From the IMG/VR virus record IMGVR_UViG_3300042009_000026, positions 1-64,000 of that record: a stretch of DNA of 64,000 bases; one strand, given 5' to 3'. The translations under genes and the position numbers were made by a program. The stretch is from a virus (lineage: Duplodnaviria > Heunggongvirae > Uroviricota > Caudoviricetes). Positions within the stretch are counted from its first letter, which is position 1. Each line of letters opens with the position of its first letter. This document shows positions 10,170 through 64,000 of the stretch, piece after piece. A model generated the notes under the pieces. It did no database searches. It was not told the origin of the DNA and was given only the letters and a program-made list of their open reading frames with translations.

Positions 10170-10178
10170 GGATTCCAA

Positions 10179-34614: not shown

Positions 34615-34909
34615 AGCGTTACAGTGGGAACTCGACTGGGTTGATGCTAACCCAGATCGATATGAAGGCCCATGGCACCGTGAACTGGTGAAACGGAACA
34701 TAAAGGCTCGCTATGCAGCGAACCAATTATTCAAGGGTGAAGTGATTTACATCAAACGTCCTGAGACCCGTTACAAGTACTTGGGTCAGTCCATGGGTGC
34801 GGGGTGGCGACGTGATGAACGGCTATTCGTTTATTGGGATGCTGAAAAAGGTCAACTGTTCCATCGGGAACGAGAAGACTTCAAAGAACAAATGGGGCAT
34901 TGTAAATGA
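34601..34909 (+). CDS. hypothetical protein (102 aa)
   Basis: Coupled ORF. Confidence 0.5.
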
Positions 34910-51179: not shown

Positions 51180-52991
51180 TTAGAACTCGAAGGAATCAAT
51201 CCAACGAGCAATTGCGGTATCAGACTGAGCTTTGTACTTGATGTATTTCAAGAACAGTTCTTCCAACCGTGGATGCTCACGTACAACCATCAAGCCACCA
51301 CGAGTTACTTTGAGATAATCTTCCACCCCAATGACGATAGTCGGATCATCCAATTGCTTAGCGAGTTCTTCCAGACGGTCGATGTTCTGGAATGCACACC
51401 AGCAATCTTCGATCTCGTTGTAGATCGCTTTAGGGATACTACCTTGAGAAATGTTCCACAGACTGAATGGACCATCAATACGACGTTTGAGTGGAACAGT
51501 ACCATCACCGAACTCATTCAACCAACGTTTATTGTTTTCGAACAGTTCCAATGCATATTCTACAGCCGTAGGCAAATGGGCAGACAACAGATTTTCTAGT
51601 GCTGTGTAATCAGGCATTTGTAGAGGATAGAAACCTTCACCCACGAACGATTCAGGATCGAATCCTTCTACCTTAGTATCAGCATGCAGCACTGCTACCA
51701 TATTACCTTCACCCGTATCCTTCACGAAAACGTAAGCATTCTTACGGTTCTCTGGATTAGCTAGAGTAGGCTTTTCTTCAATAGTTACCATACCTGTGGA
51801 ATCTTGCCCATTGTCGTTATATGCTTCTTGGATGATAGCAATAGTAGTGCTTGGATCTGGATCATCCTTATCGATGTCAATATGGATAACTTTCTTTTCT
51901 TCCGGTACTTTTGCTAGCTTAGCAATCGCATCTGTCAGGATGAGATCTGGAGTGACATCTACGTTCAGGTCAGCTTTAGGATAGGCCGAACGGAAGTAGC
52001 CAATTGTGGTCAGAGGCGATAAGTCACTATTGTCTACTTTCAGATTGATTGTCATCTTACCAGTAGGTTCATCATCGTTATAGCTGCATGCGGCATCGCA
52101 ATCATCACCAAGGTCAATACCCCATTCATCCGGGTCTACCTCACCACCGTTTAGATCGGTATCTGGGATTTCTGGATCAGTCAGAGCACTTACGCGATCG
52201 GTATGGTAACGAGATTCAACACCAGTAATGTGGATCACGCTGTGCAGCAGTGAAGGCAGTGCCAAGTTACGTTGTGCATCTGACAAAGTAGTATCAGCGA
52301 TATTTAGTTTGGTTTCATAACGACCACTACCACCCAGTATGTGATCTAGATGACGTGCCAATGCCTCGGCACCTGAGTTACTATCGAAGCCTGTCACGGT
52401 TACATGGATCGTATTGACTCCAGGATCGTCGGCAGATGTATCAGGCAATACAACCTCTTTCGATGTTCGTGCCAGGATGTCTTTGTACTCGGCCATCTCG
52501 GTAACATCCACTTGGAACAGATGTGCTAGTACACGAGCAGCAGCTTTATTCGCTTGGCCATGCTCTATACCAGAATCCATGATAGGGCATGCGGTATTGC
52601 AAACCCATGACCACAAGTAACCAGGATCGGTAGCCATCGCAGTTTTCAGTGTATCGAAAGCTTTGGCGATATCATTCTTTTCTTGTACTGGTTCTTCGGC
52701 TTTCTCCAGAGTTGCTTCTTCTGGATAATCAACTTCTACGAAGCCACCAGCACTATGCCATTTCACGTAGTAATGAACATCTTCAAAATCGATGAACATG
52801 ATGTACTTGTCATCACCTTCATGTTTACCAGCAGTAGTGACTTCTGGCCAATACTTTTTCAGCTTTTCTTCAGTGCCACGAACTACCTTCAACGAATACA
52901 TACCTGGTTCAACAATAGCCGACCAATGAATACCGAGTTCTTTGATAGTGTCGCGAATTAGATCTATACGTAGTACGACTGTTTGTTCCAT
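51180..52991 (-). CDS. hypothetical protein (603 aa, acidic)
   Basis: Long minus ORF. Confidence 0.6.
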   Translation of the reverse strand: MEQTVVLRIDLIRDTIKELGIHWSAIVEPGMYSLKVVRGTEEKLKKYWPEVTTAGKHEGDDKYIMFIDFEDVHYYVKWHSAGGFVEVDYPEEATLEKAEEPVQEKNDIAKAFDTLKTAMATDPGYLWSWVCNTACPIMDSGIEHGQANKAAARVLAHLFQVDVTEMAEYKDILARTSKEVVLPDTSADDPGVNTIHVTVTGFDSNSGAEALARHLDHILGGSGRYETKLNIADTTLSDAQRNLALPSLLHSVIHITGVESRYHTDRVSALTDPEIPDTDLNGGEVDPDEWGIDLGDDCDAACSYNDDEPTGKMTINLKVDNSDLSPLTTIGYFRSAYPKADLNVDVTPDLILTDAIAKLAKVPEEKKVIHIDIDKDDPDPSTTIAIIQEAYNDNGQDSTGMVTIEEKPTLANPENRKNAYVFVKDTGEGNMVAVLHADTKVEGFDPESFVGEGFYPLQMPDYTALENLLSAHLPTAVEYALELFENNKRWLNEFGDGTVPLKRRIDGPFSLWNISQGSIPKAIYNEIEDCWCAFQNIDRLEELAKQLDDPTIVIGVEDYLKVTRGGLMVVREHPRLEELFLKYIKYKAQSDTAIARWIDSFEF

Positions 52992-53000: not shown

Positions 53001-53411
53001 TTAAAGGGCTTGATAAGAACCATCGGCCATTTTGGCAACGCCGATGTTAGAATGTTGTTCGATTGGAGTTTCGGTAACTTTAGTTACCATCTGTTTGGTA
53101 CCGTCATTGAGACTAACCAACAATGTACAGTTGTAGACTTTGCTGCCAGAGGCGCCGTATGCAGCCCCACCAAGCGCACCACCGATTGCACCTATTGAAC
53201 GACCCTTCTTGCCAAACAAACTACCTACAAGCGCACCACCGGCGCCCCCAAGGGCACCGCCTACCAATCCACCACTCATGGATTCGTTACGGGTAACCAA
53301 TACGCAATTAGCTGACTCTACGTAACCAGTAGTATTGTTTACGACTTGTGAAGCATGGGCAGGCAAGGTCATTGCCAACAACAGTGCTACAGCTGAAACA
53401 ATCTTTTTCAT
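53001..53411 (-). CDS. secreted glycine-zipper protein (Rick_17kDa_Anti/Gly-zipper-like)
   Basis: Signal peptide MKKIVSAVALLLAMTLPAHA; GGALGGAGGALVGSLFGKKGRSIGAIGGALGGAAYGASGS. Confidence 0.55.
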   Translation of the reverse strand: MKKIVSAVALLLAMTLPAHASQVVNNTTGYVESANCVLVTRNESMSGGLVGGALGGAGGALVGSLFGKKGRSIGAIGGALGGAAYGASGSKVYNCTLLVSLNDGTKQMVTKVTETPIEQHSNIGVAKMADGSYQAL

Positions 53412-54328
53412 ACAGGAGTAACCTCAGTTTTAGCGCGGTGCCCACGCAGGCGGATTTTAGTAACACCAGGGGCTTCTACCCAAACGGTTGCTACCATGTC
53501 TTCAGTACATTCGGCACGAACAGAATAATCATCAGCAGGGAATTCTTCTCCGAGTTGCTTCAATACCGCAATGCGGATATTCTTTGCGAACTCCTCAGCA
53601 GAACGATCTTGTTCATGTTCTAGGAATGCATTGGTAAAAGCACGGTTAACTGCCGCTGTTAGCGCTAGTGTCTTTTCAGCGCGCCCACGTTGTGCTGGGG
53701 TAATAGATGCAGGCTCGATGACTTCTGGTACGCTCGGTTGTAGGGGTTCGGTTTGTTCTTCGTAATTCTCGTAGGTAATTGTGTACTCATGAACTTGACC
53801 CATGCGAACATCTTCTACGTTAATACGGAACGATAGGTCTTTACCTATACCAGCGGTGACGGACACTTCGAAATCTTCTTCCAGTCCTTCGTAGTGTACG
53901 GCCAATGCTTTCTTGATGAGTTCTTCGCCACGCAGAATCATTTCATGCGTCGAGGGTGTAACTGCATCTATCAAATCTTTGAATGTCTTATCTGCAACTG
54001 TTTTCACGACTTCAGCAAATGCAGAGTCTTGTTTATTTCCAGAAGTAAGACGAAGTTCTGCATGAGCGGTTGACGTGTATTTAACACCATCGTGTTCGAT
54101 GATAGCGTTCACTTCGAATGTTGGCTTTACACCTTTCCAGCGAATGCAAGTACTGATACCTACATTCTTACCTGGATATTCTTTTTGCATTAATGCTTGG
54201 ACGTCATCCGCTACCTTTTCTCTGAGGGCATTGGCATCAGCCATGCGGTCTTCCTGAACACTTGTAACTACAGTATTCGTGAACTCTTGTAGGTTAGCAT
54301 CGAACAAAGTTGTTTCTAATCCACCCAT
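53408..54328 (-). CDS. hypothetical protein (306 aa) immediately downstream of RtcB; possible RtcB accessory factor
   Basis: Coupled to RtcB gene (TAA/ATG 54328-54332); no archease signature recognised. Confidence 0.5.
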   Translation of the reverse strand: MGGLETTLFDANLQEFTNTVVTSVQEDRMADANALREKVADDVQALMQKEYPGKNVGISTCIRWKGVKPTFEVNAIIEHDGVKYTSTAHAELRLTSGNKQDSAFAEVVKTVADKTFKDLIDAVTPSTHEMILRGEELIKKALAVHYEGLEEDFEVSVTAGIGKDLSFRINVEDVRMGQVHEYTITYENYEEQTEPLQPSVPEVIEPASITPAQRGRAEKTLALTAAVNRAFTNAFLEHEQDRSAEEFAKNIRIAVLKQLGEEFPADDYSVRAECTEDMVATVWVEAPGVTKIRLRGHRAKTEVTPV

Positions 54329-54331
54329 GAC

Positions 54332-55660
54332 TTAACCTTTTACGCAGAGAATTTGTTTGAGGGTATGGACAACGTCCACAAGTTCGGCTTGAGCTGACAT
54401 TACGTCATCGATGTTCTTGTAAGCCTTTGGTGTTTCATCGAGTACGCCAATATCTTTACGGCATTCCACACCAGCGGTATCACGGATGTGATCTTCCAGA
54501 GTGAACACTTTCTCAGCTTGAGTACGGGACATTACACGACCTGCTCCATGCGAACACGAGCAGAACGATTCACGTTGACCTTTACCACGAACGATGAAAG
54601 ACTTAGCGCCCATCGAACCAGGGATGATCCCGAGAGTACCTTTGTCGGCGTTTACTGCACCCTTACGCGTTACCAGGACGTTCTGACCGAAGTGACGTTC
54701 TTCTGATACGTAGTTGTGGTGACAGTTGATTGCAGACATGTCCGAATCGATTGGCAGACCCAAGGTCTTGTGGATAGCACCCAGAGTAGCATGCATCATG
54801 ATTGAGCGATTGAGTGCAGCAAACCGTTGTGCCCAGGACACTGCTTCGATGTAATCATTGTAATACACGGAACCTTCTGGTAGATAAGCAAGATCACCAT
54901 CTGGTAGGTGAATGAAGAAACGTTTCATTTCTTCTTTTGCTTTCGCGATGAAGTACGTACCGATGGCATTACCGATACCACGAGAACCGGAGTGCAACAT
55001 TACCCAAACCTGATCGGTTTCATCCAGACAGATTTCGATGAAGTGGTTCCCTGTACCGAGCGTACCTACGTGGTTCCATGCCCGAGCTGCTGCTTTCGAC
55101 AGCTTAGGATGACGCTCTACAATCGAGGACAAATGCTTACGTAGCTTCTCTGCTTCGTCACGGATCTCTTTGACCTGGTGATCGAATACGTTTACTTTAC
55201 CAAATGCACCACGGTCGTTAGGGCCACCGTTGTCAGTGCGGCCATGAGGCACTGAGGCTTCGATAGCGGCGCGCAAATGACCCAGAGACTCAGGTAGTGC
55301 TGTGGACTTAAAAGTAAGGCGCTGTGCAGCCATACCGCATCCGATATCAACACCTACTGCGGATGGAATGATCGCACCTTTGGTGGCAACCACAGAACCA
55401 ATGGTGGCACCTTTGCCCAAGTGTACATCAGGCATCACAGCGATGTGTGAGTAGATGAATGGAAGAGCGGCAATGTTCTTCAATTGCTGGATTGCTTCTT
55501 TTTCGACTGGTACGCCGACGGTCCAGCCTTTGATTGGTTTCGAACCTTCTTCTACGGTATCACCAATCAGTTCAAATGTTTTCTGTTTCATAAAAGCCTC
55601 ACGCGGATGGAAAGAGGAATTGTTACATACACTGACTTTGCCAGTATTATTAAACGGCAT
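54332..55660 (-). CDS. rtcB: RNA-splicing ligase RtcB (3'-phosphate/2',3'-cyclic phosphate RNA ligase)
   Basis: MHSGSRGIGNAIG (GTP-binding), metal-binding His/Cys-rich segments, CHHNY; 442 aa. Confidence 0.85.
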   Translation of the reverse strand: MPFNNTGKVSVCNNSSFHPREAFMKQKTFELIGDTVEEGSKPIKGWTVGVPVEKEAIQQLKNIAALPFIYSHIAVMPDVHLGKGATIGSVVATKGAIIPSAVGVDIGCGMAAQRLTFKSTALPESLGHLRAAIEASVPHGRTDNGGPNDRGAFGKVNVFDHQVKEIRDEAEKLRKHLSSIVERHPKLSKAAARAWNHVGTLGTGNHFIEICLDETDQVWVMLHSGSRGIGNAIGTYFIAKAKEEMKRFFIHLPDGDLAYLPEGSVYYNDYIEAVSWAQRFAALNRSIMMHATLGAIHKTLGLPIDSDMSAINCHHNYVSEERHFGQNVLVTRKGAVNADKGTLGIIPGSMGAKSFIVRGKGQRESFCSCSHGAGRVMSRTQAEKVFTLEDHIRDTAGVECRKDIGVLDETPKAYKNIDDVMSAQAELVDVVHTLKQILCVKG

Positions 55661-55662
55661 AA

Positions 55663-55682
55663 GAGTTCCCCGGAGGGAACTC
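55663..55682 (-). promoter_or_regulatory. Minus-strand GC hairpin GAGTTCCC-TCCG-GGGAACTC + TTATGCCG (same family, reverse orientation)
   Basis: Reverse complement reproduces hairpin+UUAUGCC consensus. Confidence 0.5.
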
Positions 55683-55703
55683 GAATACTTACAGGACTAC
55701 AGT

Positions 55704-56039
55704 TCATTCGCCTATATAAGCACGAAGGTCTTCAATTAGGTCTGTATCAGTATCACGTCGTTTTAACATTGCTGTTAGTTCTTCGTAAGTACATTCTTCA
55801 GGTTCCCATTGATCTTCTAATCCCATACAGGAGCAGTGCGATCCATGGACTTCATAATACTTATCACCTTTCGCGAAGAGTACGTATGCGTCGCCGCAAT
55901 AGTTCTCCCCATCGTCATTGTAATAAGCGTGAATGATTGTTACACCCTCCAAATCCTTTTCACAGATTCGGAAATCAGACATCATGCCTTCGATACCACT
56001 TTCGGACCATTCTTTGTAAAACATGTTTATACCTTTCAA
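55704..56039 (-). CDS. hypothetical protein (111 aa)
   Basis: ORF. Confidence 0.5.
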   Translation of the reverse strand: MKGINMFYKEWSESGIEGMMSDFRICEKDLEGVTIIHAYYNDDGENYCGDAYVLFAKGDKYYEVHGSHCSCMGLEDQWEPEECTYEELTAMLKRRDTDTDLIEDLRAYIGE

Positions 56040-56432
56040 GCGTTAATTACGAGCATCGTAATCTTTCAGTGCTTGAACGTATAGTCCTGTACATTATATC
56101 GACAGCAGTATTTCTTTATTTTGATAAGGCAGCATAAAGGAAAGCCGAAGCCCCCCTCAATACTTAAGTAATCTACAATACCAATGGCCGGCCTGCTCTA
56201 TCGCCCACCTATAGGGAGCGATCATTGGTAAATGTAGCGCCACGAATTCGTAGTATCCTTCCAGTCCTGATGGCTATGTCATACCGCATGGGACTGTCTA
56301 GATAGTTGAACGTATGACTCGGCATCAGAGAGATTGTCACATCCCTAAGTACCATTCGGGTTGAAGCTTGACAGGCTTCGTTTTGTAGGTGTCTTCCCCG
56401 TGTGTGTAGAAACCGCGCAACCTACACTCTGG

Positions 56433-56446
56433 TCGTATACTATTAC
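56433..56446 (-). promoter_or_regulatory. Motif B (TCGTATACTATTAC on plus; GTAATAGTATACGA on minus), copy 1 of 3; candidate minus-strand promoter
   Basis: Identical 14-mer at 60127 and 63742, each at the upstream (high-coordinate) side of a minus-strand transcription unit. Confidence 0.4.
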
Positions 56447-56461
56447 GGGGTCAGTATTTTA

Positions 56462-57382
56462 TTACTTCAAGAAAGTACCACAGCTAGCTTGAACATCTGT
56501 ACCCACACGTGGGATAACCTTCACTCGTGTCTCTGGCAAACGATTACGGATATAACCAGCCAGATAATGAATCTGTCCTTCCACTGTTTCTTTCGACCAG
56601 TGGCCTGCCGGTGGGTTATATCGAACGACGTTCCAGTTTACACGTAGACCTATTTCTTCTATTTCGTCAATGATCGCCTTAACGTCTCCTAAAGAATCGT
56701 TTTGGTCATTAATGAAAGCATAATGGATCTTTGGTGTTTTACCGGTAACCTCTTGCCAACGCTTGAGTTCATCCAAAGCAGTAATAGGTGAACTGGCTTT
56801 AGGTAGCCACTGTTTACGAAACTGTGGATTCATACTGTACGCCGAATAGTACAGCTCAGGATACACGTCTGAGTCAGTGAAGACATCAGTTAGACGAGTA
56901 TAGCCAAAGTCCTTAGGCCAGATGGTGGAGATCAAGAACTTTGCCTCAAGCCCCCATTCTGCAGCCATTCGTTTAAGACCCCTGAGGATCTCATCGGCAT
57001 TCTCGATGAAGTGTTTGTTAGCCAGTGGTTCGCCACGTGCCATGAAGTTAAAATGAACACGCTTAGCTGGACCGTGGACAGGATCATTGCGAATGACTTC
57101 GGTGTAATGATCGAATACTCGCTCAGCTTGTTCGAAGTATTCTTTCATGGTTACATCACGTGTATCTGTTTGGCCAGTGGCCGTCAGCCAACACATCCGG
57201 CAAGCTTGTTTACAGCCTGTTTGAGACGACAAATAAACAATGAAGTAATCTTCTACCCGTCTAACAAAACGTGCCTCTAGCATCCCTGCGTGATCTTCAA
57301 AGCGGTGTTCGAAGTTAACTGATTGGTCGAGTTGAGAAACGTGTTGCTTAAAGATGAGTTCTGGCATTACCGTACTCCGCAA
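56462..57382 (-). CDS. Radical SAM enzyme, RlmN/Cfr-like (RNA adenine C2/C8 methylating family), N-terminally truncated relative to RlmN
   Basis: SSQTGCKQACRMCWLTATG (CxxxCxxC), C-terminal ...TDVQASCGTFLK matching RlmN second Cys motif. Confidence 0.7.
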   Translation of the reverse strand: MRSTVMPELIFKQHVSQLDQSVNFEHRFEDHAGMLEARFVRRVEDYFIVYLSSQTGCKQACRMCWLTATGQTDTRDVTMKEYFEQAERVFDHYTEVIRNDPVHGPAKRVHFNFMARGEPLANKHFIENADEILRGLKRMAAEWGLEAKFLISTIWPKDFGYTRLTDVFTDSDVYPELYYSAYSMNPQFRKQWLPKASSPITALDELKRWQEVTGKTPKIHYAFINDQNDSLGDVKAIIDEIEEIGLRVNWNVVRYNPPAGHWSKETVEGQIHYLAGYIRNRLPETRVKVIPRVGTDVQASCGTFLK

Positions 57383-57683
57383 TTTGGAAATCTCCTAAGT
57401 TAACAACAAAACCTTCGGAGGTAACTATTACTTCTGGTTTTACTTTGCTGTAAGGTCCATGCTGGTCACGCCAATATTCATGCAATGTTGCCTCCAACAT
57501 AGCAATGGTTTTGGCCCCCATTAATTCACCCCACTGTGAATCCAGTGCTTTTTCTATCTGGTATTGATAGCTTTTAATAATGTGGCGTGGTGGATTAGTT
57601 TCTGGTCCATGGTGTTCTTGTTTCATGAAAGCTAGGCGCGCATGACATGCTTCACGAAAAGCCTGTGTAGTTCTTTCGCTCAT
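57348..57683 (-). CDS. hypothetical protein (111 aa)
   Basis: ORF; overlaps rSAM start by 35 nt. Confidence 0.4.
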   Translation of the reverse strand: MSERTTQAFREACHARLAFMKQEHHGPETNPPRHIIKSYQYQIEKALDSQWGELMGAKTIAMLEATLHEYWRDQHGPYSKVKPEVIVTSEGFVVNLGDFQIAEYGNARTHL

Positions 57684-57716
57684 TTGTGTGTCCTATTGAT
57701 TGATTGCGGGCATAAA

Positions 57717-57736
57717 GGCTATCCCGAAGGATAACC
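57717..57736 (-). terminator. Minus-strand hairpin GGTTATCC-TTCG-GGATAGCC + TTTATGCCC after tRNA cluster
   Basis: Reverse complement matches family. Confidence 0.55.
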
Positions 57737-57762
57737 CAATGCGAGGGGCTCTAAGGCCAATA

Positions 57763-57840
57763 TGGTGCCGACATTCGGAATCGAACCGAAGACCTACCGC
57801 TTACAAGGCGGTTGCTCTGACCTAGCTGAGCTATGTCGGC
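57763..57840 (-). tRNA. tRNA-Thr (anticodon UGU), CCA encoded
   Basis: Manual cloverleaf: acceptor GCCGACA/UGUCGGC, loop CUUGUAA, T-loop UUCGAUU. Confidence 0.8.
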
Positions 57841-57841
57841 A

Positions 57842-57928
57842 TGGAGCTAAGAGAGGGATTTGAACCCCCGATGATCTTTCGAAACAGGATTTGCAATCCC
57901 GTGCATTCGTCCACTCTGCCATCTCAGC
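57842..57928 (-). tRNA. Type-II (long variable arm) tRNA with anticodon GCA (Cys codons) - atypical
   Basis: Manual fold: acceptor GCUGAGA, 3-bp D stem, anticodon stem CGGGA/UCCUG loop UUGCAAA, 15-nt variable arm, T-loop UUCAAAU, U73, CCA. Confidence 0.55.
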
Positions 57929-57935
57929 TTTAATT

Positions 57936-58023
57936 TGGCGGAAGCATAGAGATTCGAACTCTAGGGGCTGTTACACCCGACGGTTTTCAAGACCGTTGCC
58001 TTAAGCCACTCGGCCATGCTTCC
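57936..58023 (-). tRNA. tRNA-Ser (anticodon UGA), type II, CCA encoded
   Basis: Loop CUUGAAA, D-arm GCC-GAGUGGCUUAA-GGC, long variable arm, G73. Confidence 0.8.
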
Positions 58024-58038
58024 TGTGTTGCTTTTGTT

Positions 58039-58124
58039 TGGTGCGGACAGAGAGACTCGAACTCTCACGCCCTAAGGGCGCTGGAACCTAAATCCAGTGC
58101 GTCTACCAATTCCGCCATGTCCGC
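58039..58124 (-). tRNA. tRNA-Leu (anticodon UAG), type II
   Basis: Loop UUUAGGU, D-loop AAUUGGUAGAC, A73 CCA. Confidence 0.75.
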
Positions 58125-58130
58125 TGTGTA

Positions 58131-58215
58131 TGGTGCCCGAAGCGAGATTCGAACTCGCGATCCTGAAAGGCGGGAGATTTTAAGTCTCCAGTGTATGCCG
58201 CTCCACCATTCGGGC
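58131..58215 (-). tRNA. tRNA-Leu (anticodon UAA), type II
   Basis: Loop CUUAAAA, stem GGAGA/UCUCC, long variable arm, CCA. Confidence 0.7.
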
Positions 58216-59164
58216 GTGTAACTAAATTCATTCCCAGCATCCAGGATTCATGCCCTGGTTATCTGCTTATGCAGTGTAGATCGCCGCTGGGCGAGCTTTT
58301 CATCCTAGTACATAGCCTCGACTAAAATCGAAACCGGCGAGCTAGGTCTATCTACGTACTTGCCTACAACGCTTCAGTGTGATGGAGGGCAAGTAAAAGA
58401 ATCGAGGGAACCCGCTACACGCTTTGCTTAGATGGTGTTTAAACCAAATGCCGAGTAGCTCATTCCATGGGTGTATTCTAGTATACACGCAACTGCCTTT
58501 CAGCCGTCTCGTCGATTACCAGTCGCAACTGGTTCTCTGTGTATGGCCCAGTAGCCTCTTTACGGGAGTCATCTACTGGGAAGGTTACCACTACAGGACT
58601 TTCACCTTCTGTGGCCTGGCATTCCAACCAGTTCATGTAACCAAGACGGAATTGACTAATCCGTTGTAGCCGAGTCATCACGCTTCTTCGGTATGGGCGC
58701 CTTAATAATCAGGACTATCCGATCTTTGGGGTATTTGGGGTACGGGCATCGAGTTTCCCTGTTATTCCACTATTCTAGTCTTTTGTGGAACGTCATTGGG
58801 TATTATTCGTAGATCCATACAAGTGCAACTCTGCGCCCTAGTCTGAGGATTAATCAGACACCTGTATAGATCCGAGCCTATCCCTTTCAGGCTAGGACTT
58901 CACCAAGTCAATGGACTCAGTGTATGTGGAAGTTTGATGGAACGATCCTCTACCTTCATCTATTCGGACTCAGGCGACCTTTTCAGCACAGTGGGGTGGA
59001 GTGCACTTACCCAACATCCTGCCATGTCTTTCACATGCTTGTTGAAAAAGATGTAACGATCTAACCTCTTAACGCTAGTCGGCAGCTTTCCCGATTCACG
59101 CAACCTTTACCGAACACTGGAGGCAACTACCTTACCCAATATCCGAACATCTTATTCATACGCT

Positions 59165-59839
59165 TTATTCGTGCGTAGTAGACAACTCAGAGATGATGCA
59201 GATCGAACCATCTTCAACCAGTGTGGTATCGGAGTAATCAATCTGATTGTAAACACCACCATGGAATTGGAAAGTTCTATCTTTCCATGTGCTATCTAGT
59301 TTCAGCACTGGGCAGACCGACTTACGTCCATCACAAAGTACTGATACCGAAACGGAACCAGCAGCTGTGACATGTAAGCTAATCTTGAATGGTACACCTA
59401 ATGGAACGTCTTCCAGCAGCGTAAAGTTATTTATGATTGCGTCAATGAAGTTACTACGGAAACCAGCTGTGATTCTTCCTTTATTCCAGAAGACTTTCAG
59501 TGGCGGAGTAGTTGCATTCTTGACATGGACTTGTGCAATCACCACTTTCTGTGCCGAGTTAACTTTAGTAACAGTCATCGACTGGCGAGACCAGTGGTGT
59601 GGTGCGCTAGTAAGAGACCAATAGGCTGGTTCTTTCCATTCGCATCGTGTGCGGTGTGTACTTTTGCTGGACGCCCCTAATGTGGGCGCAGAGAGTTGAA
59701 TAGATCCATCTTCTAGTTGACTAACCACTTCTGGGCATTGAATCAAGGCTTCCGAACCCATGAGTTCCAATGCAACCGGGTTCTCTTCAGATACCGGCAA
59801 TGGTGTAGCGATCAAATAGTTACTGATGTCAACGAACAT
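59165..59839 (-). CDS. hypothetical protein (224 aa)
   Basis: ORF. Confidence 0.55.
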   Translation of the reverse strand: MFVDISNYLIATPLPVSEENPVALELMGSEALIQCPEVVSQLEDGSIQLSAPTLGASSKSTHRTRCEWKEPAYWSLTSAPHHWSRQSMTVTKVNSAQKVVIAQVHVKNATTPPLKVFWNKGRITAGFRSNFIDAIINNFTLLEDVPLGVPFKISLHVTAAGSVSVSVLCDGRKSVCPVLKLDSTWKDRTFQFHGGVYNQIDYSDTTLVEDGSICIISELSTTHE

Positions 59840-59861
59840 TGTTACTCTCTTTTAAATAAGC

Positions 59862-59930
59862 GAGGGTGTCCTAGGCCACTAGACGAACTGCCCCGAAGGA
59901 CAGTACCGGGGTCGAACCGATGTTTCCCTC
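59862..59930 (-). ncRNA. Non-canonical tRNA-like cloverleaf element between tRNA-Trp and ORF 59839
   Basis: On minus strand: outer stem GAGGG/CCCUC enclosing T-arm-like hairpin (AUCGG-UUCGACC-CCGGU), 7-bp hairpin ACUGUCC-UUCG-GGGCAGU, and D-arm-like hairpin (CUAG-UGGC-CUAG). Confidence 0.3.
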
Positions 59931-59936
59931 TATCAC

Positions 59937-60012
59937 TGGCGGGCATGACAGGACTTGAACCTATAACATCTGGCTTTGGAGGCCAGCGTTCTGCCAATTG
60001 AACTACACACCC
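59937..60012 (-). tRNA. tRNA-Trp (anticodon CCA)
   Basis: Stem CUGGC/GCCAG loop CUCCAAA, T-loop UUCAAGU, CCA encoded. Confidence 0.7.
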
Positions 60013-60126
60013 TAAAACTTGGTCGGGTTTTTGTTAAACCAGGCTAACCGATATCCCTGGTCCCTATCGAGTAAGCTCTAGGGGAGTCTTACTCTTACGC
60101 TCGTTTGGAGACTTAACGACAGTCTC

Positions 60127-60140
60127 TCGTATACTATTAC
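60127..60140 (-). promoter_or_regulatory. Motif B copy 2
   Basis: TCGTATACTATTAC between minus ORF 60154 and tRNA-Trp. Confidence 0.4.
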
Positions 60141-60153
60141 ACTCCCAGTAATT

Positions 60154-60348
60154 TTATCCGTAGAGTGTTCCCCAGTTAACGACTTTGTTTAGTTGTTCCT
60201 GAGTAGGGATTCTACGACGAGCTTCTTCTTCAATCTGCTTGTCATATGCTGCCATTTTTATCCGTGCTTCTTTAAGACGTTCTTTTTGTTCTTCAGTAAG
60301 CGGTTCCAGTGCATTGCGTGACAAAGCGATCAGTTTAGCTAGACTCAT
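60154..60348 (-). CDS. small hypothetical protein (64 aa)
   Basis: ORF in minus-strand small-gene run. Confidence 0.4.
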   Translation of the reverse strand: MSLAKLIALSRNALEPLTEEQKERLKEARIKMAAYDKQIEEEARRRIPTQEQLNKVVNWGTLYG

Positions 60349-60539
60349 AGAGAAATTACCTTGTTCAATAAAGCCTCAGAAGGAATAGAGTCTTGGAATA
60401 TTTTGTGGCATCGTTTATCCATTTCTGCTAATCTTTCTACTTGTTTACGCAAGCGCGCTGCTTTCTCTTCAGGTGGTTCTTGTGAACGACGGTATTCAAT
60501 CAGTTCTTCTATGGTGGCATGCGTTCTCACAATGTGCAT
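60345..60539 (-). CDS. small hypothetical protein (64 aa)
   Basis: Coupled ORF. Confidence 0.4.
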   Translation of the reverse strand: MHIVRTHATIEELIEYRRSQEPPEEKAARLRKQVERLAEMDKRCHKIFQDSIPSEALLNKVISL

Positions 60540-61044
60540 CTCTTGGCTAATAGTTCAGGAGTAACTTTCTGATTCTCTAAGTCTGTAGCGCATCGTTCAT
60601 TGAATACCCGTGAACGTTCCTGCGCGTCAGCTAATCTGGCAGCACGAGTTGGACCCATTCTTTTACGGGTTTCCCTTATCAAGTTCTCTAGGCTCATATC
60701 GTGCATCTCCGTGCTAACATTTCAGGCGTTACTTCTTGAGTTTTGGCTTGGGCTCTTAAGATACGGGTCATAACTACAGTGCGTGCACGTGCCTTGCGTA
60801 AGAACTCCTCATGGCTGGCATAGCCCATTATGACCCAACATGGTTTACGGGTTGGTTCTGTCATAACGTACACCTTTTGTTCAAGATTTCAGGAGTCATT
60901 CGTTGGCTATCTAATTGTTCATTCAGTTCTTGATTGAGTTTAGCCATACGTGCATGTTGGTGTTGTCGATATTCCATAGGGGTCATTCCCATAGCAGCAG
61001 CGGCACGATTTAATATGCGTTCAATTAGTCCTGGTGACATCATA

Positions 61045-61311
61045 TCAATCTACCTGTACTTGTACATAGACCCTAGTTGTGCCATGCATGAAGTCATAGT
61101 TGCTTACGTACTGTGCTTCATTCAAAGGCTTAGCACTGATCCATACTTGGATGATATCCTGTCCACACTTCCGTAGGATCTTAGATACGCGGTTCTGGAT
61201 ACGCCTTCGACCCACTGCAGCTATCTTAGGGAACTCACGCTTCAGCATAACTACCATTCGCTCGTGACATTCCTTACCACGTTGGATTTCATCTGGAGTT
61301 CTATACATCAC
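61045..61311 (-). CDS. small hypothetical protein (88 aa)
   Basis: ORF. Confidence 0.4.
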   Translation of the reverse strand: MMYRTPDEIQRGKECHERMVVMLKREFPKIAAVGRRRIQNRVSKILRKCGQDIIQVWISAKPLNEAQYVSNYDFMHGTTRVYVQVQVD

Positions 61312-61504
61312 TAAACGTCCTTAGAAATATGCTCTCTGCAATTGTCCACATGGTGTATGCTGGGGCATCTTTTGTTGGTTCTAGATTTGTATATACGACC
61401 ATAGGCCAACTGCAGTCTTGGGCATGACGGGCCAGATATAGAACTCTGAATGGTTTACCGGTAGGTGACTTATAAACTTTTTGTTCTTCAATTGATTCGA
61501 GCAT
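61301..61504 (-). CDS. small hypothetical protein (67 aa)
   Basis: ORF. Confidence 0.4.
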   Translation of the reverse strand: MLESIEEQKVYKSPTGKPFRVLYLARHAQDCSWPMVVYTNLEPTKDAPAYTMWTIAESIFLRTFSDV

Positions 61505-61763
61505 TGACGGTAGCCACTTCCGAGTTTATGTTAATCCATATCTGTTTGCCATTATGGATATCATCTTTCAATATCATTCCACATTCGCAGTTGTAGAGAT
61601 TATAACAGTAGTCTGGTTGGGGTTGTTGATTACGATCATCACATGTGACTAGATGCATTTGTTTACAACACATACATTTCATCATTGGCAACTCCCCTGC
61701 ACTTTTAGTCCACATTGTAGGCAGATCTCCCGCCAACCATTTTCTTTTGACTCTGGTTCCCAC
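61488..61763 (-). CDS. Cys-rich small protein (putative zinc finger)
   Basis: CMCCKQMHLVTCDD...CYNLYNCECG. Confidence 0.4.
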   Translation of the reverse strand: MGTRVKRKWLAGDLPTMWTKSAGELPMMKCMCCKQMHLVTCDDRNQQPQPDYCYNLYNCECGMILKDDIHNGKQIWININSEVATVNARIN

Positions 61764-61839
61764 TCTGGGTGAGTGCAGTCTTTTTGCTGTATCTTAGGAA
61801 CTAACTTACGTTCTTTAAATAGCCATCTGAATAGTCGCA

Positions 61840-62097
61840 TTAGTGCATCACCATTGAGCCTTCATTATGACATGCGCAAGTACACAGTTTAAGTGGTGTG
61901 CCGCACATGGTTACGATTGTGTTTATTGGATAAAATCCTCTTTTCGCAAAGACGTATTTTCCCCAATCAGTATCACGCTCTTCTTCTTCATGAATGGTAG
62001 CATCCTCACCAAACATTGCTTTCATGGATTCTGGCTTAGGATTACCTTCTTTATCCAGGTATTGACGTTCAGTATTATCGCAGCATTGTACACACAT
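61840..62097 (-). CDS. Cys-rich small protein (putative zinc ribbon); start trimmed to avoid HNH overlap
   Basis: CVQCCDNTERQY...CGTPLKLCTCACHNEG. Confidence 0.4.
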   Translation of the reverse strand: MCVQCCDNTERQYLDKEGNPKPESMKAMFGEDATIHEEEERDTDWGKYVFAKRGFYPINTIVTMCGTPLKLCTCACHNEGSMVMH

Positions 62098-62110
62098 TGT
62101 AAGTTCCTCT

Positions 62111-62527
62111 TTATGAATTAATTGCATTGATGTAGAACATGTCAAATCGTTCTGTACCCATTGGACTAATCGAATAGAACCCTGCTTCAATACGGTCGTG
62201 TTCTTCTCTGTGGCAGTTCGCACAGAGTAATAGACATTTGTCTAATTCTACTTTTATTCGATCAAAAGATTTTGTTCCACCCGATGTACTGATACCGAAT
62301 TCCTTTTCATCTGGATCAGCATGATGGAATTCAAGAGCACTTGGATTAGAACAGTATCCGCAATCGTTGCACGCGCCGCCTTTATATTCAATCGATAGAA
62401 CTTTTAATTTCCTGCGTCTATCGCTTACGGCTATGGACATGCATTTCATACAACGCCATTTAATTTGATTACCTGCACGGAAAGATCTGTATGTTACCAT
62501 TCCGTGGACTTTACATTCTTTCTGCAT
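62111..62527 (-). mobile_element. HNH homing endonuclease carrying the INS C-terminal tail (ends ...MFYINAINS)
   Basis: CNDCGYCSNPSALEFHHADP...LLCANCHREEH (HNH); C-terminal AINS. Confidence 0.65.
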
Positions 62528-62579
62528 TGTAAATTCCTATTGCGACATAAAGGAGATCTTTCGACCTCCTTTATTAAAT

Positions 62580-62664
62580 TGGCTCCGAGAACTGGGTTCG
62601 AACCAGTAGTGACTATGTCGCACGGTTAACAGCCGTGTGCCTTACCAATTCGGCGCATCTCGGA
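62580..62664 (-). tRNA. Type-II (long variable arm, Ser-like D-arm, G73) tRNA with anticodon GUU (Asn codons) - atypical
   Basis: Manual fold: acceptor UCCGAGA, D-arm GCC-GAAUUGGUAA-GGC, stem CACGG/CCGUG loop CUGUUAA, 13-nt variable arm with GAC/GUC stem, T-loop UUCGAAC, CCA. Confidence 0.55.
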
Positions 62665-62670
62665 ATGAAG

Positions 62671-62706
62671 CAGTACTTGGTCTATATTATTACATACCAA
62701 GTACTA
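62671..62706. promoter_or_regulatory. Hairpin AGTACTTGGT / ACCAAGTACT with CTATATTATTACAT in loop
   Basis: Promoter-core-like sequence presented in a hairpin loop. Confidence 0.3.
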
Positions 62707-62986
62707 TTTAAACTGTACTGGGATACCGGGCTTCCTCCGGATAATCGTTTTATCTAGACTCCCTCTCATGTCTAGCGATGCTTGAAATTATCCCAAAGAT
62801 CTCCGGTACCACAGCATTCACGGTTACCCGTTATGTGTAATATACTTCCGGCGTCATCGATGGAAATTCTTTACCTAAACAGTTCCCTAATAACTGATTA
62901 CCCTGCGCGTCAGGTCGTTCGTCTATTAGGTAGGCGTGTATGCGACGCCTCGTTTTAGTTCTGCACCTAAGTGCCTTCTGTCTAGC

Positions 62987-63060
62987 ACGCCCCTACCGGA
63001 TTTGAACCGATGACCAATGGATTATTAGTTCACTGCTCTACCAGACTGAGCTAAGGGGCG
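62987..63060 (-). tRNA. tRNA, anticodon uncertain (apparent AAU, Ile-reading if A34 modified); no encoded CCA
   Basis: Acceptor CGCCCCU/AGGGGCG, D-arm GCUC-AGUCUGGUAG-AGC, loop CUAAUAA with one A-C mismatch in anticodon stem, T-loop UUCAAAU. Confidence 0.5.
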
Positions 63061-63064
63061 ACAA

Positions 63065-63148
63065 TGGTGGATGAAGGAAGGAATTGAACCTCTAGGAGAA
63101 CCGGCGGGGTTACAGGCCGCTGACGGTAGCCATCCGTCTCTACATCAT
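63065..63148 (-). tRNA. tRNA-Tyr (anticodon GUA), type II, A73, CCA encoded
   Basis: Stem GCGGC/CCCGC loop CUGUAAC, long variable region, T-loop UUCAAUU. Confidence 0.65.
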
Positions 63149-63375
63149 CCGTATCAGCAGCAGCCGGTCCACCCGGTCATGAGGTTTTAACTCTTCTGTG
63201 CTGATAGTAAAACATTTGAAATTAACTTTGGAGAAAGGCGACTCGTTTTATCTCCTGACTTGTACCCATGCACCCATTATTGGATTGTCTAATAGACTTT
63301 CCAATGATCCACCGGGCGGCTCCTTTAATGTGGACCGGGCTGTACCTTACCGTCGTTGTAAGTTAATTTCAAAAC

Positions 63376-63452
63376 TGGCGCAACCAGCGGGACTCGAACC
63401 CGCGACCTCCTGCGTGACAGGCAGGCATTCTAACCAACTGAACTATGGCTGC
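63376..63452 (-). tRNA. tRNA-Asp (anticodon GUC)
   Basis: Near-identical to E. coli tRNA-Asp core (UAGUUCAGUUGGUUAGAAU...CCUGCCUGUCACGCAGG...GUCGCGGGUUCGAGUCCCG). Confidence 0.85.
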
Positions 63453-63640
63453 GTTATGCTGCTTGCTGTTCTCTTTTACTGACTGCGTAGTCAGCATCAT
63501 TAACAGCTTCTCGAAGTACCTGCTTATCAAGTTTCAAGTTCTTCCAACTAAGCTTGCTGCAACAGCGGCAATCAGCTGGACCGAAATCATCCAAGGGACG
63601 AGGCTTTATCTTGACTTTCATAACTACTCCAAGAGAAAAT

Positions 63641-63718
63641 TGGGGTGGACTACGGGGTTCGAACCCGTGACCCCCAGGGTCACATCCTGGTACTCTAACC
63701 AACTGAGCTAAGTCCAAC
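63641..63718 (-). tRNA. tRNA-His (anticodon GUG) with extra G-1 and C73
   Basis: Stem CCAGG/CCUGG loop AUGUGAC; acceptor 3' AGUCCAC-C-CCA; G-1 present. Confidence 0.7.
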
Positions 63719-63741
63719 ATCAAGCATCGAGGGCATTGCTC

Positions 63742-63755
63742 TCGTATACTATTAC
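63742..63755 (-). promoter_or_regulatory. Motif B copy 3, upstream (minus sense) of tRNA-His
   Basis: TCGTATACTATTAC; 24 nt from tRNA-His 5' end. Confidence 0.4.
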
Positions 63756-64000
63756 ATTCAAAGTATTATTTTACTTTGGGGCAAAGACAACTGCGATTGG
63801 GCTGCACTATTGCGCTGACCCAACCACATATAGTTGTATACAATTCAACCACTTAGTAAACGAACGACCCAGTAGTTACATCGTAATATGATTCAGCAAT
63901 CCATTTCCAATCAGGCCAACGCTTACGGAAAGCAATTCGGGCTGTTTCCATCTCTTCTGCATTCAACACGATGTCAGTATGGATATCTTTATTCCATGGC

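Follow-up and report, generated by a model that had tools for sequence, protein, structure and literature searches.

In jumbo phages, tRNA genes, RtcB, ATP-dependent ligases and a CCA enzyme have been described together as an RNA-repair counter-defence; such systems occur more often in groups 2 and 3 than in group 1, where their scarcity has been ascribed to the nucleus-like compartment (Iyer et al. 2021, PMC7824862). The RtcB of the jumbo phage RAY is found in the cytoplasm. In the paper on phage D6, the phage tRNAs are read as related to codon usage (PMC11139720). For RlmN and Cfr, an N-terminal domain has been described; C118 of RlmN is regarded as indispensable and as the probable general base, and C118 and C105 are called indispensable for resolving the protein-RNA crosslink, which the C118A mutation traps (PMC9692996). 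Toxins of the MenT/AbiEii type append pyrimidines to the acceptor ends of tRNAs and favour class II tRNAs (PMC7450476; PMC10435456; bioRxiv 10.64898/2026.01.19.700257), and in P. syringae AbiEii is listed with the TA families that are less prevalent yet commonly present (PMC8790059).

The 64,000-nucleotide stretch of DNA analyzed here (the window) comes from a Pseudomonas jumbo phage similar to 201phi2-1, Psa21 and D6, and the region of interest is its tRNA island. It carries a repair kit of the known kind together with a radical SAM enzyme (rSAM), which is the interesting part. All the ORFs named in the original prediction are present in the ORF list, in place, those of the island on the minus strand. 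This minus-strand block meets a plus-strand block convergently near 51.1 kb. The final gene of the minus-strand block, at the junction, encodes a conserved 603-aa protein (51180..52991), which is 38-53% identical to its relatives and follows the rSAM gene directly in the related locus L005. Next to it lies a 136-aa protein of PHROG 15869 (53001..53411, minus strand) with a signal-peptide-like N-terminus and a glycine zipper, the Gly-zipper and TraT matches being weak. The start of this ORF overlaps the stop of the 306-aa ORF described below, and the protein is found in most RtcB-carrying loci; tblastn detects none in L007 or L009.

RtcB (419 aa, minus strand, 54332..55591) matches PF01139 over its full length with an E-value of 1.9e-127, as had been called, and RtcB structures in the PDB at 1e-31 to 1e-37. 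The ORF is open to 55660, but the alignment with D6 and the Shine-Dalgarno context point to 55591 as the likely true start. The metal-ligand and His-GMP motifs (PDVH, DIGCG, GTGNHF, HSGSRG, HHNY, SHGAGR) are complete, and the enzyme is thus predicted from its motifs to be catalytically intact. RtcB ligates 3'-phosphate or 2',3'-cyclic-phosphate ends onto 5'-OH ends. The protein is 78-92% identical among relatives. Its partner of 306 aa (53408..54328, minus strand), 3 nt downstream, is a clade-restricted orphan, predicted to fold into three units, each of two helices and a three-stranded sheet; archease, with which it had been proposed to be compared, was rejected as its identity. The block of RtcB and its partner is an indel cassette, present in eight of the 14 related loci and missing from the other six, 201phi2-1 among them. 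Between RtcB and the rSAM gene lies a 111-aa ORF of PHROG 8792 (55704..56039, minus strand), which is kept in the RtcB-carrying relatives; the similarity to D6 reaches upstream to 56117.

The island holds ten tRNA genes found by ARAGORN, all of which pass the Rfam tRNA gathering score and nine of which encode their own 3' CCA. Five of them, Thr(UGU), Cys(GCA), Ser(UGA), Leu(UAG) and Leu(UAA), form a cluster (57763..58215, minus strand) with Rfam scores of 53-72 bits (gathering score 29); all five encode the CCA, and the Cys(GCA) tRNA is 87 nt long with a variable region of 14 nt. The cluster is separated from the rSAM gene by a second 111-aa ORF (57348..57683, minus strand), which overlaps the rSAM start, is confined to close relatives (58% identity in L009) and has no match in Pfam, NCBIfam, PHROG or PADLOC. 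Farther along the minus strand, ARAGORN and Rfam place tRNA-Trp(CCA) at 59937..60012 and four more tRNAs within 62580..63717: Asn(GUU), 85 nt with a long variable region (62580-62664), 'Ile(AAU)', which has a mismatched anticodon stem and no encoded CCA (62987-63060), Asp(GUC) (63376-63452) and His(GUG) (63641-63717). Other genes are interspersed on the same strand. An alginate lyase (59165..59839; PF08787, 2e-38, full length), with copies 76-91% identical in L009 and L007, is not RNA-related. Five small paralogous ORFs of 59-64 aa are arranged in an overlapping tandem (60154..61043), and this family is multi-copy in all relatives of the clade. The ORF list also shows Cys-rich small ORFs at 61488-62223, and an HNH homing-type endonuclease (62111..62527; PF01844, 2.8e-5, above cutoff) has a 93% identical copy in L010.

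Two more RNA enzymes are encoded on the opposite strand. The predicted class II CCA enzyme (34906..36138, plus strand) is borne out by its Pfam domains (PolyA_pol, PolyA_pol_RNAbd and HD) and by a score of 645.7 bits, above the cutoff of 451, against NF008137, the 'multifunctional CCA addition/repair protein'; it is a repair enzyme of the host type, and its gene ends about 17 kb short of the island. The RNA ligase (15671..17035, plus strand), a nick-sealing enzyme whose gene ends about 36 kb short of the island, has genes for thymidylate synthase and NAD-salvage-like functions upstream. It is indeed an ATP-dependent ligase (PF09414), but the tRNA-binding-like OB domain ascribed to it was rejected: there is no match to tRNA_bind PF01588, and the OB domain is the N-terminal one of Rnl5 (PF21189). 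The architecture of OB plus nucleotidyltransferase domain is that of the Rnl5 enzymes of Naegleria and Deinococcus, plus an inserted stretch of about 75 aa; the Naegleria Rnl5 structure 5cot is matched in two stretches at 3.6e-39, and TIGR02306 with 132 bits, under its cutoff of 151. Among the larger ORFs tested, there is no 5'-kinase or 3'-phosphatase that could heal RNA ends, which leaves the HD domain of the CCA enzyme as the sole obvious healing partner of the ligase.

The rSAM gene (56462..57367, minus strand) probably starts at ATG 57367, giving 301 aa; the longest ORF, from TTG 57382, has 306 aa, and residue numbers follow this version. The protein is RlmN/Cfr-like (class A-like) and belongs to PHROG 27142. 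Its top NCBIfam match is the RlmN model TIGR00048 (2.9e-15), followed by the Cfr models; the score of 56 bits over model positions 78-341 of 355 is far under the cutoff of 290. Profile comparison gives 5e-17 for Cfr and 1e-7 for RlmN. The AF2 model (pLDDT 90) is closest to the RlmN structures 3rfa and 5hr7 (E about 1e-14, TM 0.72-0.76), the next class by fold being the PFL-activating enzyme at 1.6e-7. The original assignment to an RlmN-like enzyme therefore stands in so far as RlmN and Cfr are the best matches by sequence and by fold, and no assignment to a non-RNA family such as QueE or NrdG emerged; a bona fide RlmN is not supported, the protein being only a distant relative.

The rSAM shares with RlmN and Cfr the fold, the [4Fe-4S]/SAM motif (C57-x3-C61-x2-C64) and the C-terminal methyl-carrier-type cysteine, Cys301, which sits in an ASCG motif (ASC301G aligned with AAC355G of RlmN). 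In contrast to both, it lacks the helical, RNA-binding domain at the N-terminus, and the position of the resolving cysteine, C118 in RlmN, is taken by Tyr50 (Y50-LSSQTG-C57 aligned with C118-VSSQVG-C125). As the protein has only four cysteines, no alternative cysteine is available. Tyr50 and the methyl-carrier cysteine are invariant in 120/120 database homologues and in 97/97 locus sequences. The loss of the resolving cysteine might abolish turnover; since C118 is the probable general base of RlmN (PMC9692996), the tyrosine could also serve as a base.

This branch of RlmN/Cfr-like enzymes is large (at least 1285 members), uncharacterised and without a curated profile, and it forms a separate clade, whose bacterial members have a gene context of their own. 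In every related locus of the chimallivirus type with enough flank, tRNA genes lie 0.4-8 kb from the rSAM gene. Phage 201phi2-1 keeps the rSAM; the 21 kb fetched around it hold one tRNA gene and no RtcB, which indicates that the rSAM is independent of adjacent phage tRNA genes. In jumbo phages unrelated to the Pseudomonas phage (Caulobacter phages CcrColossus and CcrPW and Brevundimonas phage Marchewka), the rSAM is 41-47% identical and is followed on its own strand, at a distance of 1.6-2.4 kb, by a CCA-type nucleotidyltransferase; in Marchewka, Thg1 follows as well, 6 kb downstream. Of 60 loci from bacterial genomes (Planctomycetota, Myxococcota), 40 have an AbiEii nucleotidyltransferase (PADLOC 8.8e-64, Pfam 1.9e-26) beside the rSAM, and in 37 of these 40 it directly adjoins it in divergent orientation and is followed by an LRR gene; AbiEii identity across the loci drops to 33%. 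The viral loci and the window have the rSAM without the AbiEii and LRR genes, consistent with the capture of one component. Three independent contexts, the tRNA island, CCA/Thg1 and AbiEii, thus support a tie of the family to tRNA biology. Adjacency in the Pseudomonas phage clade may reflect common ancestry rather than selection, the Dolichocephalovirinae context amounts in effect to a single lineage, in which adjacency by chance has a probability of about 4-5%, and the bacterial rSAM, divergent from AbiEii-LRR, may just as well act as a co-effector, an immunity factor or a regulator.

The original prediction of an integrated module holds for the gene identities and for the tRNA link of the rSAM family, but not for the integration, as the genes lie on both strands, span about 48 kb and include an indel cassette; nor is the combination of tRNAs, RtcB, ligases and CCA enzyme undescribed, as it is already published (Iyer et al. 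2021, PMC7824862). It is possible, although somewhat doubtful, that there is no functional integration at all and that a hypervariable region rich in homing endonucleases has collected unrelated cargo. The tRNAs would then tune codon supply late in infection, in line with the codon-usage reading of the D6 paper (PMC11139720), RtcB would be a general RNA-damage ligase, and the rSAM would be unrelated to tRNA defence, modifying 23S rRNA in a Cfr-like manner, which might retune or protect ribosomes, or another nucleic acid. The alginate lyase, the HNH endonuclease and the five paralogous ORFs scattered among the tRNAs, the variable presence of the RtcB cassette, the retention of the rSAM in 201phi2-1 with neither RtcB nor a tRNA cluster beside it, and the preference of the family profile for Cfr all fit this explanation. 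So do many distant viral loci, in which no tRNA-related gene lies within 10 kb of the rSAM and it is surrounded by genes for replication and nucleotide metabolism. Against it stand the three independent ties to tRNA-acting enzymes and the lack of the N-terminal domain found in RlmN and Cfr (PMC9692996).

An offensive role is improbable. Here the rSAM would be a suicide effector that stays crosslinked to its target and so disables particular host tRNAs or rRNA. In bacteria it would join AbiEii as a second effector in an abortive-infection system with an LRR sensor, and in phages it would be a means of host shut-off or superinfection exclusion. The C118A mutant of RlmN likewise remains covalently crosslinked to RNA, 5hr7 is among the best folds, C118 and C105 are indispensable for resolution (PMC9692996), the window rSAM has no cysteine to spare, and the bacterial genes adjoin a known toxin family. 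However, a suicide enzyme that acts stoichiometrically makes an inefficient toxin, the strict conservation of Tyr at the exact position (97/97) suggests catalytic replacement over simple loss, and the gene is kept, amid other accessory genes, by lytic jumbo phages of four host genera.

The Asp and His isoacceptors of E. coli bear m2A37. A functional RlmN orthologue that uses the canonical mechanism with two cysteines to make m2A37 on phage or host tRNAs, as originally proposed, or m2A2503 on rRNA is very unlikely and, given its missing defining residues, already disfavoured: homologues are labelled RlmN by GenBank and JGI, and A37 is present in the phage Asp and His tRNAs, but the score is far below the equivalog cutoff, the resolving cysteine is missing with no conserved alternative, the N-terminal domain is missing, and the family is a clade of its own with a distinct bacterial context.

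The best explanation, which as a whole has about an even chance of being right, is a loose tRNA-repair toolkit accompanied by an rSAM that acts on tRNA as a counter-defence. The phage tRNAs would substitute for host tRNAs damaged by host defences, RtcB would rejoin tRNAs cleaved by metal-independent anticodon nucleases, and the CCA enzyme would restore tRNA 3' ends; these genes would be gained and lost independently rather than as one operon-like module. The rSAM would modify an RNA adenine by radical C-methylation or by a related reaction that forms an adduct, and Tyr50 would stand in for the cysteine as the base. The adenine would most likely be one in tRNA; other candidate substrates are rRNA, a nucleotide, a protein and DNA. 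Because its bacterial orthologues seem hard-wired to AbiEii/MenT-type nucleotidyltransferase toxins, which lengthen tRNA 3' ends, and its homologues in other phages accompany CCA-adding enzymes and Thg1, the phage rSAM most plausibly pre-empts or neutralizes this type of attack on tRNA. The rSAM is thus best read as an enzyme of new chemistry that acts on tRNA in counter-defence, with tRNA as its putative substrate and AbiE as its putative opponent.

The tRNA repair functions of the window belong to a kit that is already known, and what is new is the nature of its RlmN-like gene. The plus-strand and minus-strand blocks of genes converge near 51.1 kb, and the minus-strand block, whose ORFs and tRNAs are found as listed in the original prediction, spans 51.2-64 kb. 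An ORF of 306 aa (53408-54328, minus strand) is separated by 3 nt from the end of the RtcB gene (54332-55660, minus strand). A 111-aa ORF call on the same strand lies between RtcB and the gene of the RlmN/Cfr-like radical SAM enzyme, rSAM (56462-57382, minus strand). The rSAM start is overlapped by a second minus-strand ORF call, also of 111 aa, and ARAGORN places a cluster of five tRNAs at 57763-58215 (minus strand). The alignment with phage D6 and the context of the ribosome-binding sites suggest that the true starts are at 55591 for RtcB (419 aa) and at 57367 for rSAM (301 aa); the residues of rSAM are numbered here on its 306-aa form. The block also holds five more tRNAs, small ORFs rich in Cys and an HNH endonuclease. 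All ten tRNAs found by ARAGORN are above the Rfam gathering score, and CCA is encoded by nine of the ten genes. Scans for operons, using sigma-70 promoters and intrinsic terminators, gave no excess over shuffled sequences. The closest relatives in GenBank are the jumbo Pseudomonas phages 201phi2-1, Viktualia, RVTF4, D6, Psa21 and Phabio, of which 201phi2-1 is the archetype of nucleus-forming phages. The gene order of D6 is matching: a 609-aa protein, proteins of 137 and 323 aa, RtcB, two small ORFs, 'RlmN', a 96-aa protein and tRNA-Thr/Cys/Ser.

Two of the tRNAs, tRNA-Cys(GCA) of 87 nt (57842-57928, minus strand) and tRNA-Asn(GUU) of 85 nt (62580-62664, minus strand), are long, with class II-like D arms and variable regions of 13-14 nt, and retain the expected discriminator bases, U73 and G73, respectively. 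In the loci compared (L001, L006, L009, L010 and L012), three relatives share the long tRNA-Cys and two the long tRNA-Asn, and a normal 76-nt tRNA-Asn is found in other relatives. Half of the ten tRNAs in the island belong to class II or resemble that class. Three reports describe tRNAs of class II as preferred by the toxins AbiEii and MenT3 (PMC7450476, PMC10435456, bioRxiv 10.64898/2026.01.19.700257). The 'Ile' tRNA at 62987-63060 (minus strand; Rfam 59 bits) has the unusual anticodon AAU, a mismatched anticodon stem and no encoded CCA, and may be degenerate or unconventional.

The island contains other sequences as well. A 55-nt segment (58585-58639, minus strand) matches positions 330-384 of bacterial 23S rRNA with 37.7 bits (E 1.4e-8), short of the gathering score of 50, and sits within the small ORF 58478-58681, for which conservation in L007, a related locus, is 86%. 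The products of five paralogous ORFs that overlap in tandem (59-64 aa; 60154-61043, minus strand) have similar C-terminal ends (...LNKRCTL, ...LAKRCTL, ...LNKVISL); this family is present in multiple copies in all relatives of the clade. A full-length alginate lyase (59165-59839, minus strand; PF08787, 2e-38), 76-91% conserved in two relatives, is also located inside the island and fits an alginate-producing Pseudomonas host.

The RtcB assignment made in the original prediction is upheld by a full-length match to PF01139 (profile positions 1-426, E 1.9e-127) with 426.5 bits against a cutoff of 27. The motifs PDVH, DIGCG, GTGNHF, HSGSRG, HHNY and SHGAGR are all present in alignment with solved RtcB structures, and the metal-binding Asp, Cys and His residues are conserved together with the His of the HGAGR motif that carries the GMP adduct. 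Nucleus-forming jumbo phages are known to encode homologues of RtcB, and that of phage RAY, gp048, is cytoplasmic. E. coli-type RtcB and RAY gp048 likewise consist of a full-length domain with every catalytic motif, whereas in the window RtcB is followed after 3 nt by the 306-aa protein, which is an orphan restricted to the clade. Searches of 5.8 billion clusters and of 1.84 billion representatives found six and eight homologues of this protein, respectively. Neither archease nor RtcA was found with RtcB in the window. The suggestion that the 306-aa neighbor might be an archease received no support from either sequence or fold: Pfam, NCBIfam and PHROG gave no archease match, and the model, whose fold is ambiguous, contains three units, each of two helices and a three-stranded sheet, with no sequence homology among one another. 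As the model is only of medium confidence (pLDDT 74, pTM 0.35), the rejection is not absolute.

RtcB and the 306-aa ORF, usually accompanied by a 136-aa protein, behave as an indel cassette. The cassette is present in eight of the 14 related loci and rSAM in all 14. The six loci that are devoid of the cassette include 201phi2-1 (L003) and L004, which carry the closest relatives of the window's rSAM. In L005, the rSAM gene is directly followed by a homolog of the window's minus-strand 603-aa gene (51180-52991). The 136-aa protein (53001-53411, minus strand), found in most loci with the RtcB cassette, begins with what looks like a signal peptide, contains a glycine-zipper motif and weakly resembles the surface-exclusion protein TraT (E 0.0056); it is possibly an envelope or exclusion factor and not an RNA-repair protein. 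PADLOC returned no match for rSAM, RtcB, the 306-aa ORF or the small ORFs.

The remaining repair genes are on the plus strand. The class II CCA-adding enzyme that had been proposed at 34906-36138 has the PolyA_pol, RNA-binding and HD domains and scores 645.7 bits against NF008137 ('multifunctional CCA addition/repair protein'), above its equivalog cutoff of 451. The RNA ligase at 15671-17035 (plus strand) is of the Rnl5 (Naegleria/Deinococcus) type. Its N-terminal OB domain (PF21189, 7.4e-24) is fused to a nucleotidyltransferase domain (PF09414, 1.2e-17), and the match to PDB 5cot covers both domains (3.6e-39), in two stretches that are separated by an inserted segment of about 75 aa; the score against TIGR02306, 132.2 bits, is below the equivalog cutoff of 151.15. 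The enzyme is thus a ligase with an OB domain as originally described, and the tRNA-binding character ascribed to that domain is not retained, since the Pfam scan gave PF21189 and PF09414 and no match to tRNA_bind (PF01588): the OB domain is Rnl5's own. No healing enzyme, whether kinase or phosphatase, was detected among the twenty larger plus-strand ORFs tested.

Several other genes of the plus-strand block can be described. At 9231-11990 (plus strand), the gene of a 312-aa protein similar to ribose-phosphate pyrophosphokinase is next to that of a 603-aa protein similar to nicotinamide/nicotinate phosphoribosyltransferase, the latter with an insertion. The pair resembles a NARP1-type phage pathway of NAD+ reconstitution, which would counter NAD-depleting defenses. 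The thymidylate synthase of 471 aa (12679-14094, plus strand) matches its Pfam profile in two separate parts. Positions 1-168 of the profile extend over residues 2-306, which implies that roughly 140 aa are inserted, perhaps as an intein, a homing-endonuclease remnant or an extra domain. The block also encodes a homing endonuclease of the GIY-YIG/I-TevI-like kind at 4919-5575 and a protein with BCS1-N and AAA ATPase domains at 7509-8891 (both plus strand).

The genes described above were originally proposed to form one integrated counter-defense module of a possibly undescribed composition. The CCA gene is 17 kb and the Rnl5 gene 36 kb distant, both on the opposite strand, and RtcB with its partner is retained in only eight of the 14 clade loci, all of which have rSAM. 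Being dispersed, placed on two strands and independently gained or lost, the genes do not support a single module. The combination itself has also been published, in a survey of jumbo phages where tRNA genes together with RtcB, ATP-dependent ligases and a CCA enzyme are interpreted as protection from host attack on tRNA (Iyer, Anantharaman, Krishnan, Burroughs and Aravind 2021, Viruses 13:63, PMC7824862). The toolkits of that survey contain tRNA arrays, RtcB and/or ligases and a CCA enzyme, as the window does. They differ in that most of their ligases are Rnl1 or Rnl2, that the survey names no radical SAM or RlmN-like component, and that neither a kinase nor a phosphatase for end healing occurs among the window ORFs tested. 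The window shares with T4, which uses Pnkp and Rnl1 against PrrC, the logic that the phage mends tRNA cleaved by the host (reviewed in PMC7824862), with the difference that RtcB, by analogy, would join 3'-phosphate or cyclic phosphate ends to 5'-OH directly; Pnkp was not detected in the window. An alternative explanation is an unintegrated set of accessory genes in which rSAM acts on rRNA or on some other target. This explanation is conceivable, if rather unlikely, and the genomic contexts that bear on it, some of which connect rSAM with tRNA, are described after the enzyme itself.

The best curated match of rSAM is RlmN TIGR00048 (2.9e-15), followed by the Cfr models. The scores are far below the cutoffs: 56.1 bits against 290 for TIGR00048, over profile positions 78-341 of 355 and starting from residue 18 of the protein, and 34-38 bits against 530-550 for Cfr. 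With a profile built from 35 sequences of the family, the E-value is 5e-17 for Cfr and about 1e-7 for RlmN. In the AlphaFold (AF2) model (pLDDT 90), the top 11 fold matches in the PDB are all RlmN, RlmN-like or Cfr (E ~1e-14, TM 0.72-0.76), and other radical SAM classes score well behind. The cysteines C57, C61 and C64 of the radical SAM cluster (CX3CX2C in an SSQxGC context) align with those of RlmN and Cfr and are invariant in the homologs. Cys301, in an ASCG motif, is aligned with the methyl-carrier cysteines C355 of RlmN and C338 of Cfr (AACGQ), and is found in all 121 aligned sequences (that of the window and the 120 best of at least 1285 homologs) and in 97 of 97 locus sequences. The cysteine that resolves the crosslink (C118 of RlmN, C105 of Cfr) is replaced by Tyr50 in an otherwise identical Y/C-x-S-S-Q-x-G-C context. 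This tyrosine, too, is invariant, both among the 119 residues present at its column in the 120 best database homologs and in the 97 locus sequences, which come from viral and bacterial loci including 201phi2-1 gp434, CcrColossus gp283, Brevundimonas phage Marchewka and one Gemmataceae genome. The residue alignments agree across four solved proteins. The window's rSAM has four cysteines in total, and there is no further conserved cysteine.

Compared with the solved RlmN and Cfr structures (3rfa, 5hr7 and 9p0p), rSAM shares the fold, the SSQxGC-x3-C-x2-C motif, the beta-strand extension ahead of this motif and the C-terminal flexible loop with the methyl-carrier cysteine in D(V/I)xA(S/A)CG. However, it is only ~18-20% identical to them, lacks the N-terminal helical (nucleic-acid-binding) domain, being about 300 aa long against 349-404 aa for the solved chains, and belongs to a separate family with phage and AbiEii-linked contexts of its own. 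The description as RlmN/Cfr-like, accordingly, holds for the fold, the cluster motif and the methyl-carrier cysteine, and fails for the resolving cysteine, the N-terminal domain and the equivalog score. As the second cysteine and the N-terminal domain are missing, the family departs from RlmN and Cfr in two defining features while keeping the fold and the methyl carrier. It is a distinct, large branch with altered catalytic residues, class A-like and yet outside the definition of the class. Slr0320 of Synechocystis, considered as a cellular relative, is an unrelated, B12-dependent class B enzyme.

The defining feature of class A methylases is a pair of conserved cysteines, of which C118/C105 is indispensable for resolving the protein-RNA adduct and is probably the general base (PMC9692996). 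The rSAM family breaks this rule, which implies either a new chemistry, with tyrosine as the base, or a different product. Loss of the indispensable residue could mean that rSAM does not resolve its adduct at all and is a crosslinking effector used offensively, a function that we regard as improbable. A tyrosine at this position would be chemically plausible as a base. That rSAM is a canonical m2A37 RlmN is highly improbable, for the residues that define that enzyme are missing.

At least 1285 proteins, each about 300 aa long, make up the rSAM family, which is without a dedicated Pfam or NCBIfam model and is covered only by PHROG 27142 ('Fe-S-cluster redox domain-containing'). No description of it was found in open-access papers and bioRxiv, an absence that is not proof of novelty; in the paper on Tenacibaculum phage Larrie, rlmN is merely an MLST marker. 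Among GenBank phages the family occurs in 22 records, every genome being at least 207 kb long, with Pseudomonas, Caulobacter, Brevundimonas and Tunturiibacter as hosts. In the Pseudomonas phage clade, rSAM is 0.4-8 kb from tRNA genes in all loci with enough flanking sequence. In the unrelated Dolichocephalovirinae, rSAM is 41-47% identical to that of the window, and a CCA-type nucleotidyltransferase, verified with Pfam, is encoded 1.6-2.4 kb downstream on the same strand. Marchewka has a Pfam-verified Thg1 tRNA-His guanylyltransferase 6 kb downstream of rSAM. In 201phi2-1, rSAM lies among hypothetical proteins with no adjoining tRNA cluster. Most other distant viral loci have only replication and nucleotide-metabolism genes as rSAM neighbors, and a neighbor census of the distant viral and non-AbiEii bacterial loci gave no consistent partner. 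Two metagenome-assembled genomes (MAGs) in that census have a phoH-ybeY-corC-lnt housekeeping cluster at rSAM. In the alphaproteobacterial MAG loci L041 and L054, the rSAM homolog is directly downstream of a ybeY-corC-lnt housekeeping string, YbeY being an rRNA-maturation endoribonuclease; this cellular context differs from the AbiEii-linked one.

In 40 of 60 bacterial loci, from Planctomycetota and Myxococcota, rSAM adjoins an AbiEii-family nucleotidyltransferase. In 37 bacterial loci, the AbiEii gene is directly adjacent and divergent and is followed by a gene for a leucine-rich repeat (LRR) protein of ~500 aa; a single locus has all three colinear. Within the bacterial set, the AbiEii proteins are as little as 33% identical. 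The neighbor in locus L098 is assigned to AbiEii by both PADLOC (8.8e-64) and PF08843 (1.9e-26), and this locus (4646-7897) has AbiEii and then an overlapping LRR gene, with rSAM divergent across a gap of ~60 bp; the triad is also in L039-L084, L096 and L100. PADLOC does not list the triad as a system and has no match for its rSAM and LRR proteins. The neighbors are clear relatives of the AbiE/MenAT nucleotidyltransferases, but the partners in the Pfam-labeled bacterial loci are the LRR protein and rSAM, and no AbiEi/MenA antitoxin label was present among the called neighbors of the two Pfam-labeled loci of L098-L100. AbiEii was found neither in the window nor in any viral locus, and the phages carry the rSAM component alone. 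In a neighbor-joining tree, the AbiEii-linked bacterial clade is apart from the clade of the viral and other bacterial proteins. The triad is an undescribed bacterial gene arrangement, in which the cellular rSAMs of the AbiEii-linked clade are locked to a tRNA-directed toxin family. According to the three reports mentioned above, AbiEii/MenT toxins modify the acceptor ends of tRNA (PMC7450476, PMC10435456, bioRxiv 10.64898/2026.01.19.700257). In P. syringae genomes, AbiEii is among the less prevalent yet commonly found toxin-antitoxin families (PMC8790059). The three contexts, in Pseudomonas phages, in Dolichocephalovirinae and in bacterial AbiEii loci, point to a link of the rSAM family with tRNA, although 201phi2-1 and most other distant viral loci caution against reading too much into it.

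By combining these observations, it is possible to propose a joint explanation of the island, which we consider as apt to be right as wrong. The island would supply tRNAs, and RtcB would reseal those that have been cleaved. The role of rSAM is inferred in its substrate, its product and its direction alike: the enzyme would act on an adenine of RNA, probably of tRNA, and its modification would pre-empt or neutralize attack of the AbiEii/MenT type. A wider reading, which is doubtful when taken as a whole, places the ~300-aa proteins with tyrosine for cysteine in a class that is mechanistically new among the radical SAM enzymes that modify RNA. In it, rSAM would be the third component, beside an LRR sensor and the AbiEii toxin, of an undescribed conflict system of Planctomycetota and Myxococcota, and jumbo phages of at least two unrelated lineages would have captured this component against AbiE/MenT. 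The enzyme would then chemically mark tRNA, possibly at or near the acceptor end, which would keep nucleotidyltransferase toxins from disabling it.

Cultured carriers of the gene exist (201phi2-1 gp434, Phabio, Psa21, D6 and CcrColossus gp283), and the question is thus directly testable. Nucleus-forming jumbo phages shield their DNA, which makes host attack on RNA, and on tRNA in particular, a main remaining threat. Knowledge of the counter-measures that these phages take at the RNA level would help to explain their host range and help in choosing phages for therapy. If the tight linkage to AbiEii in bacteria is functional, it would bring to light a new immune system of three genes and, for the first time, an enzyme with which phages answer nucleotidyltransferase toxins.
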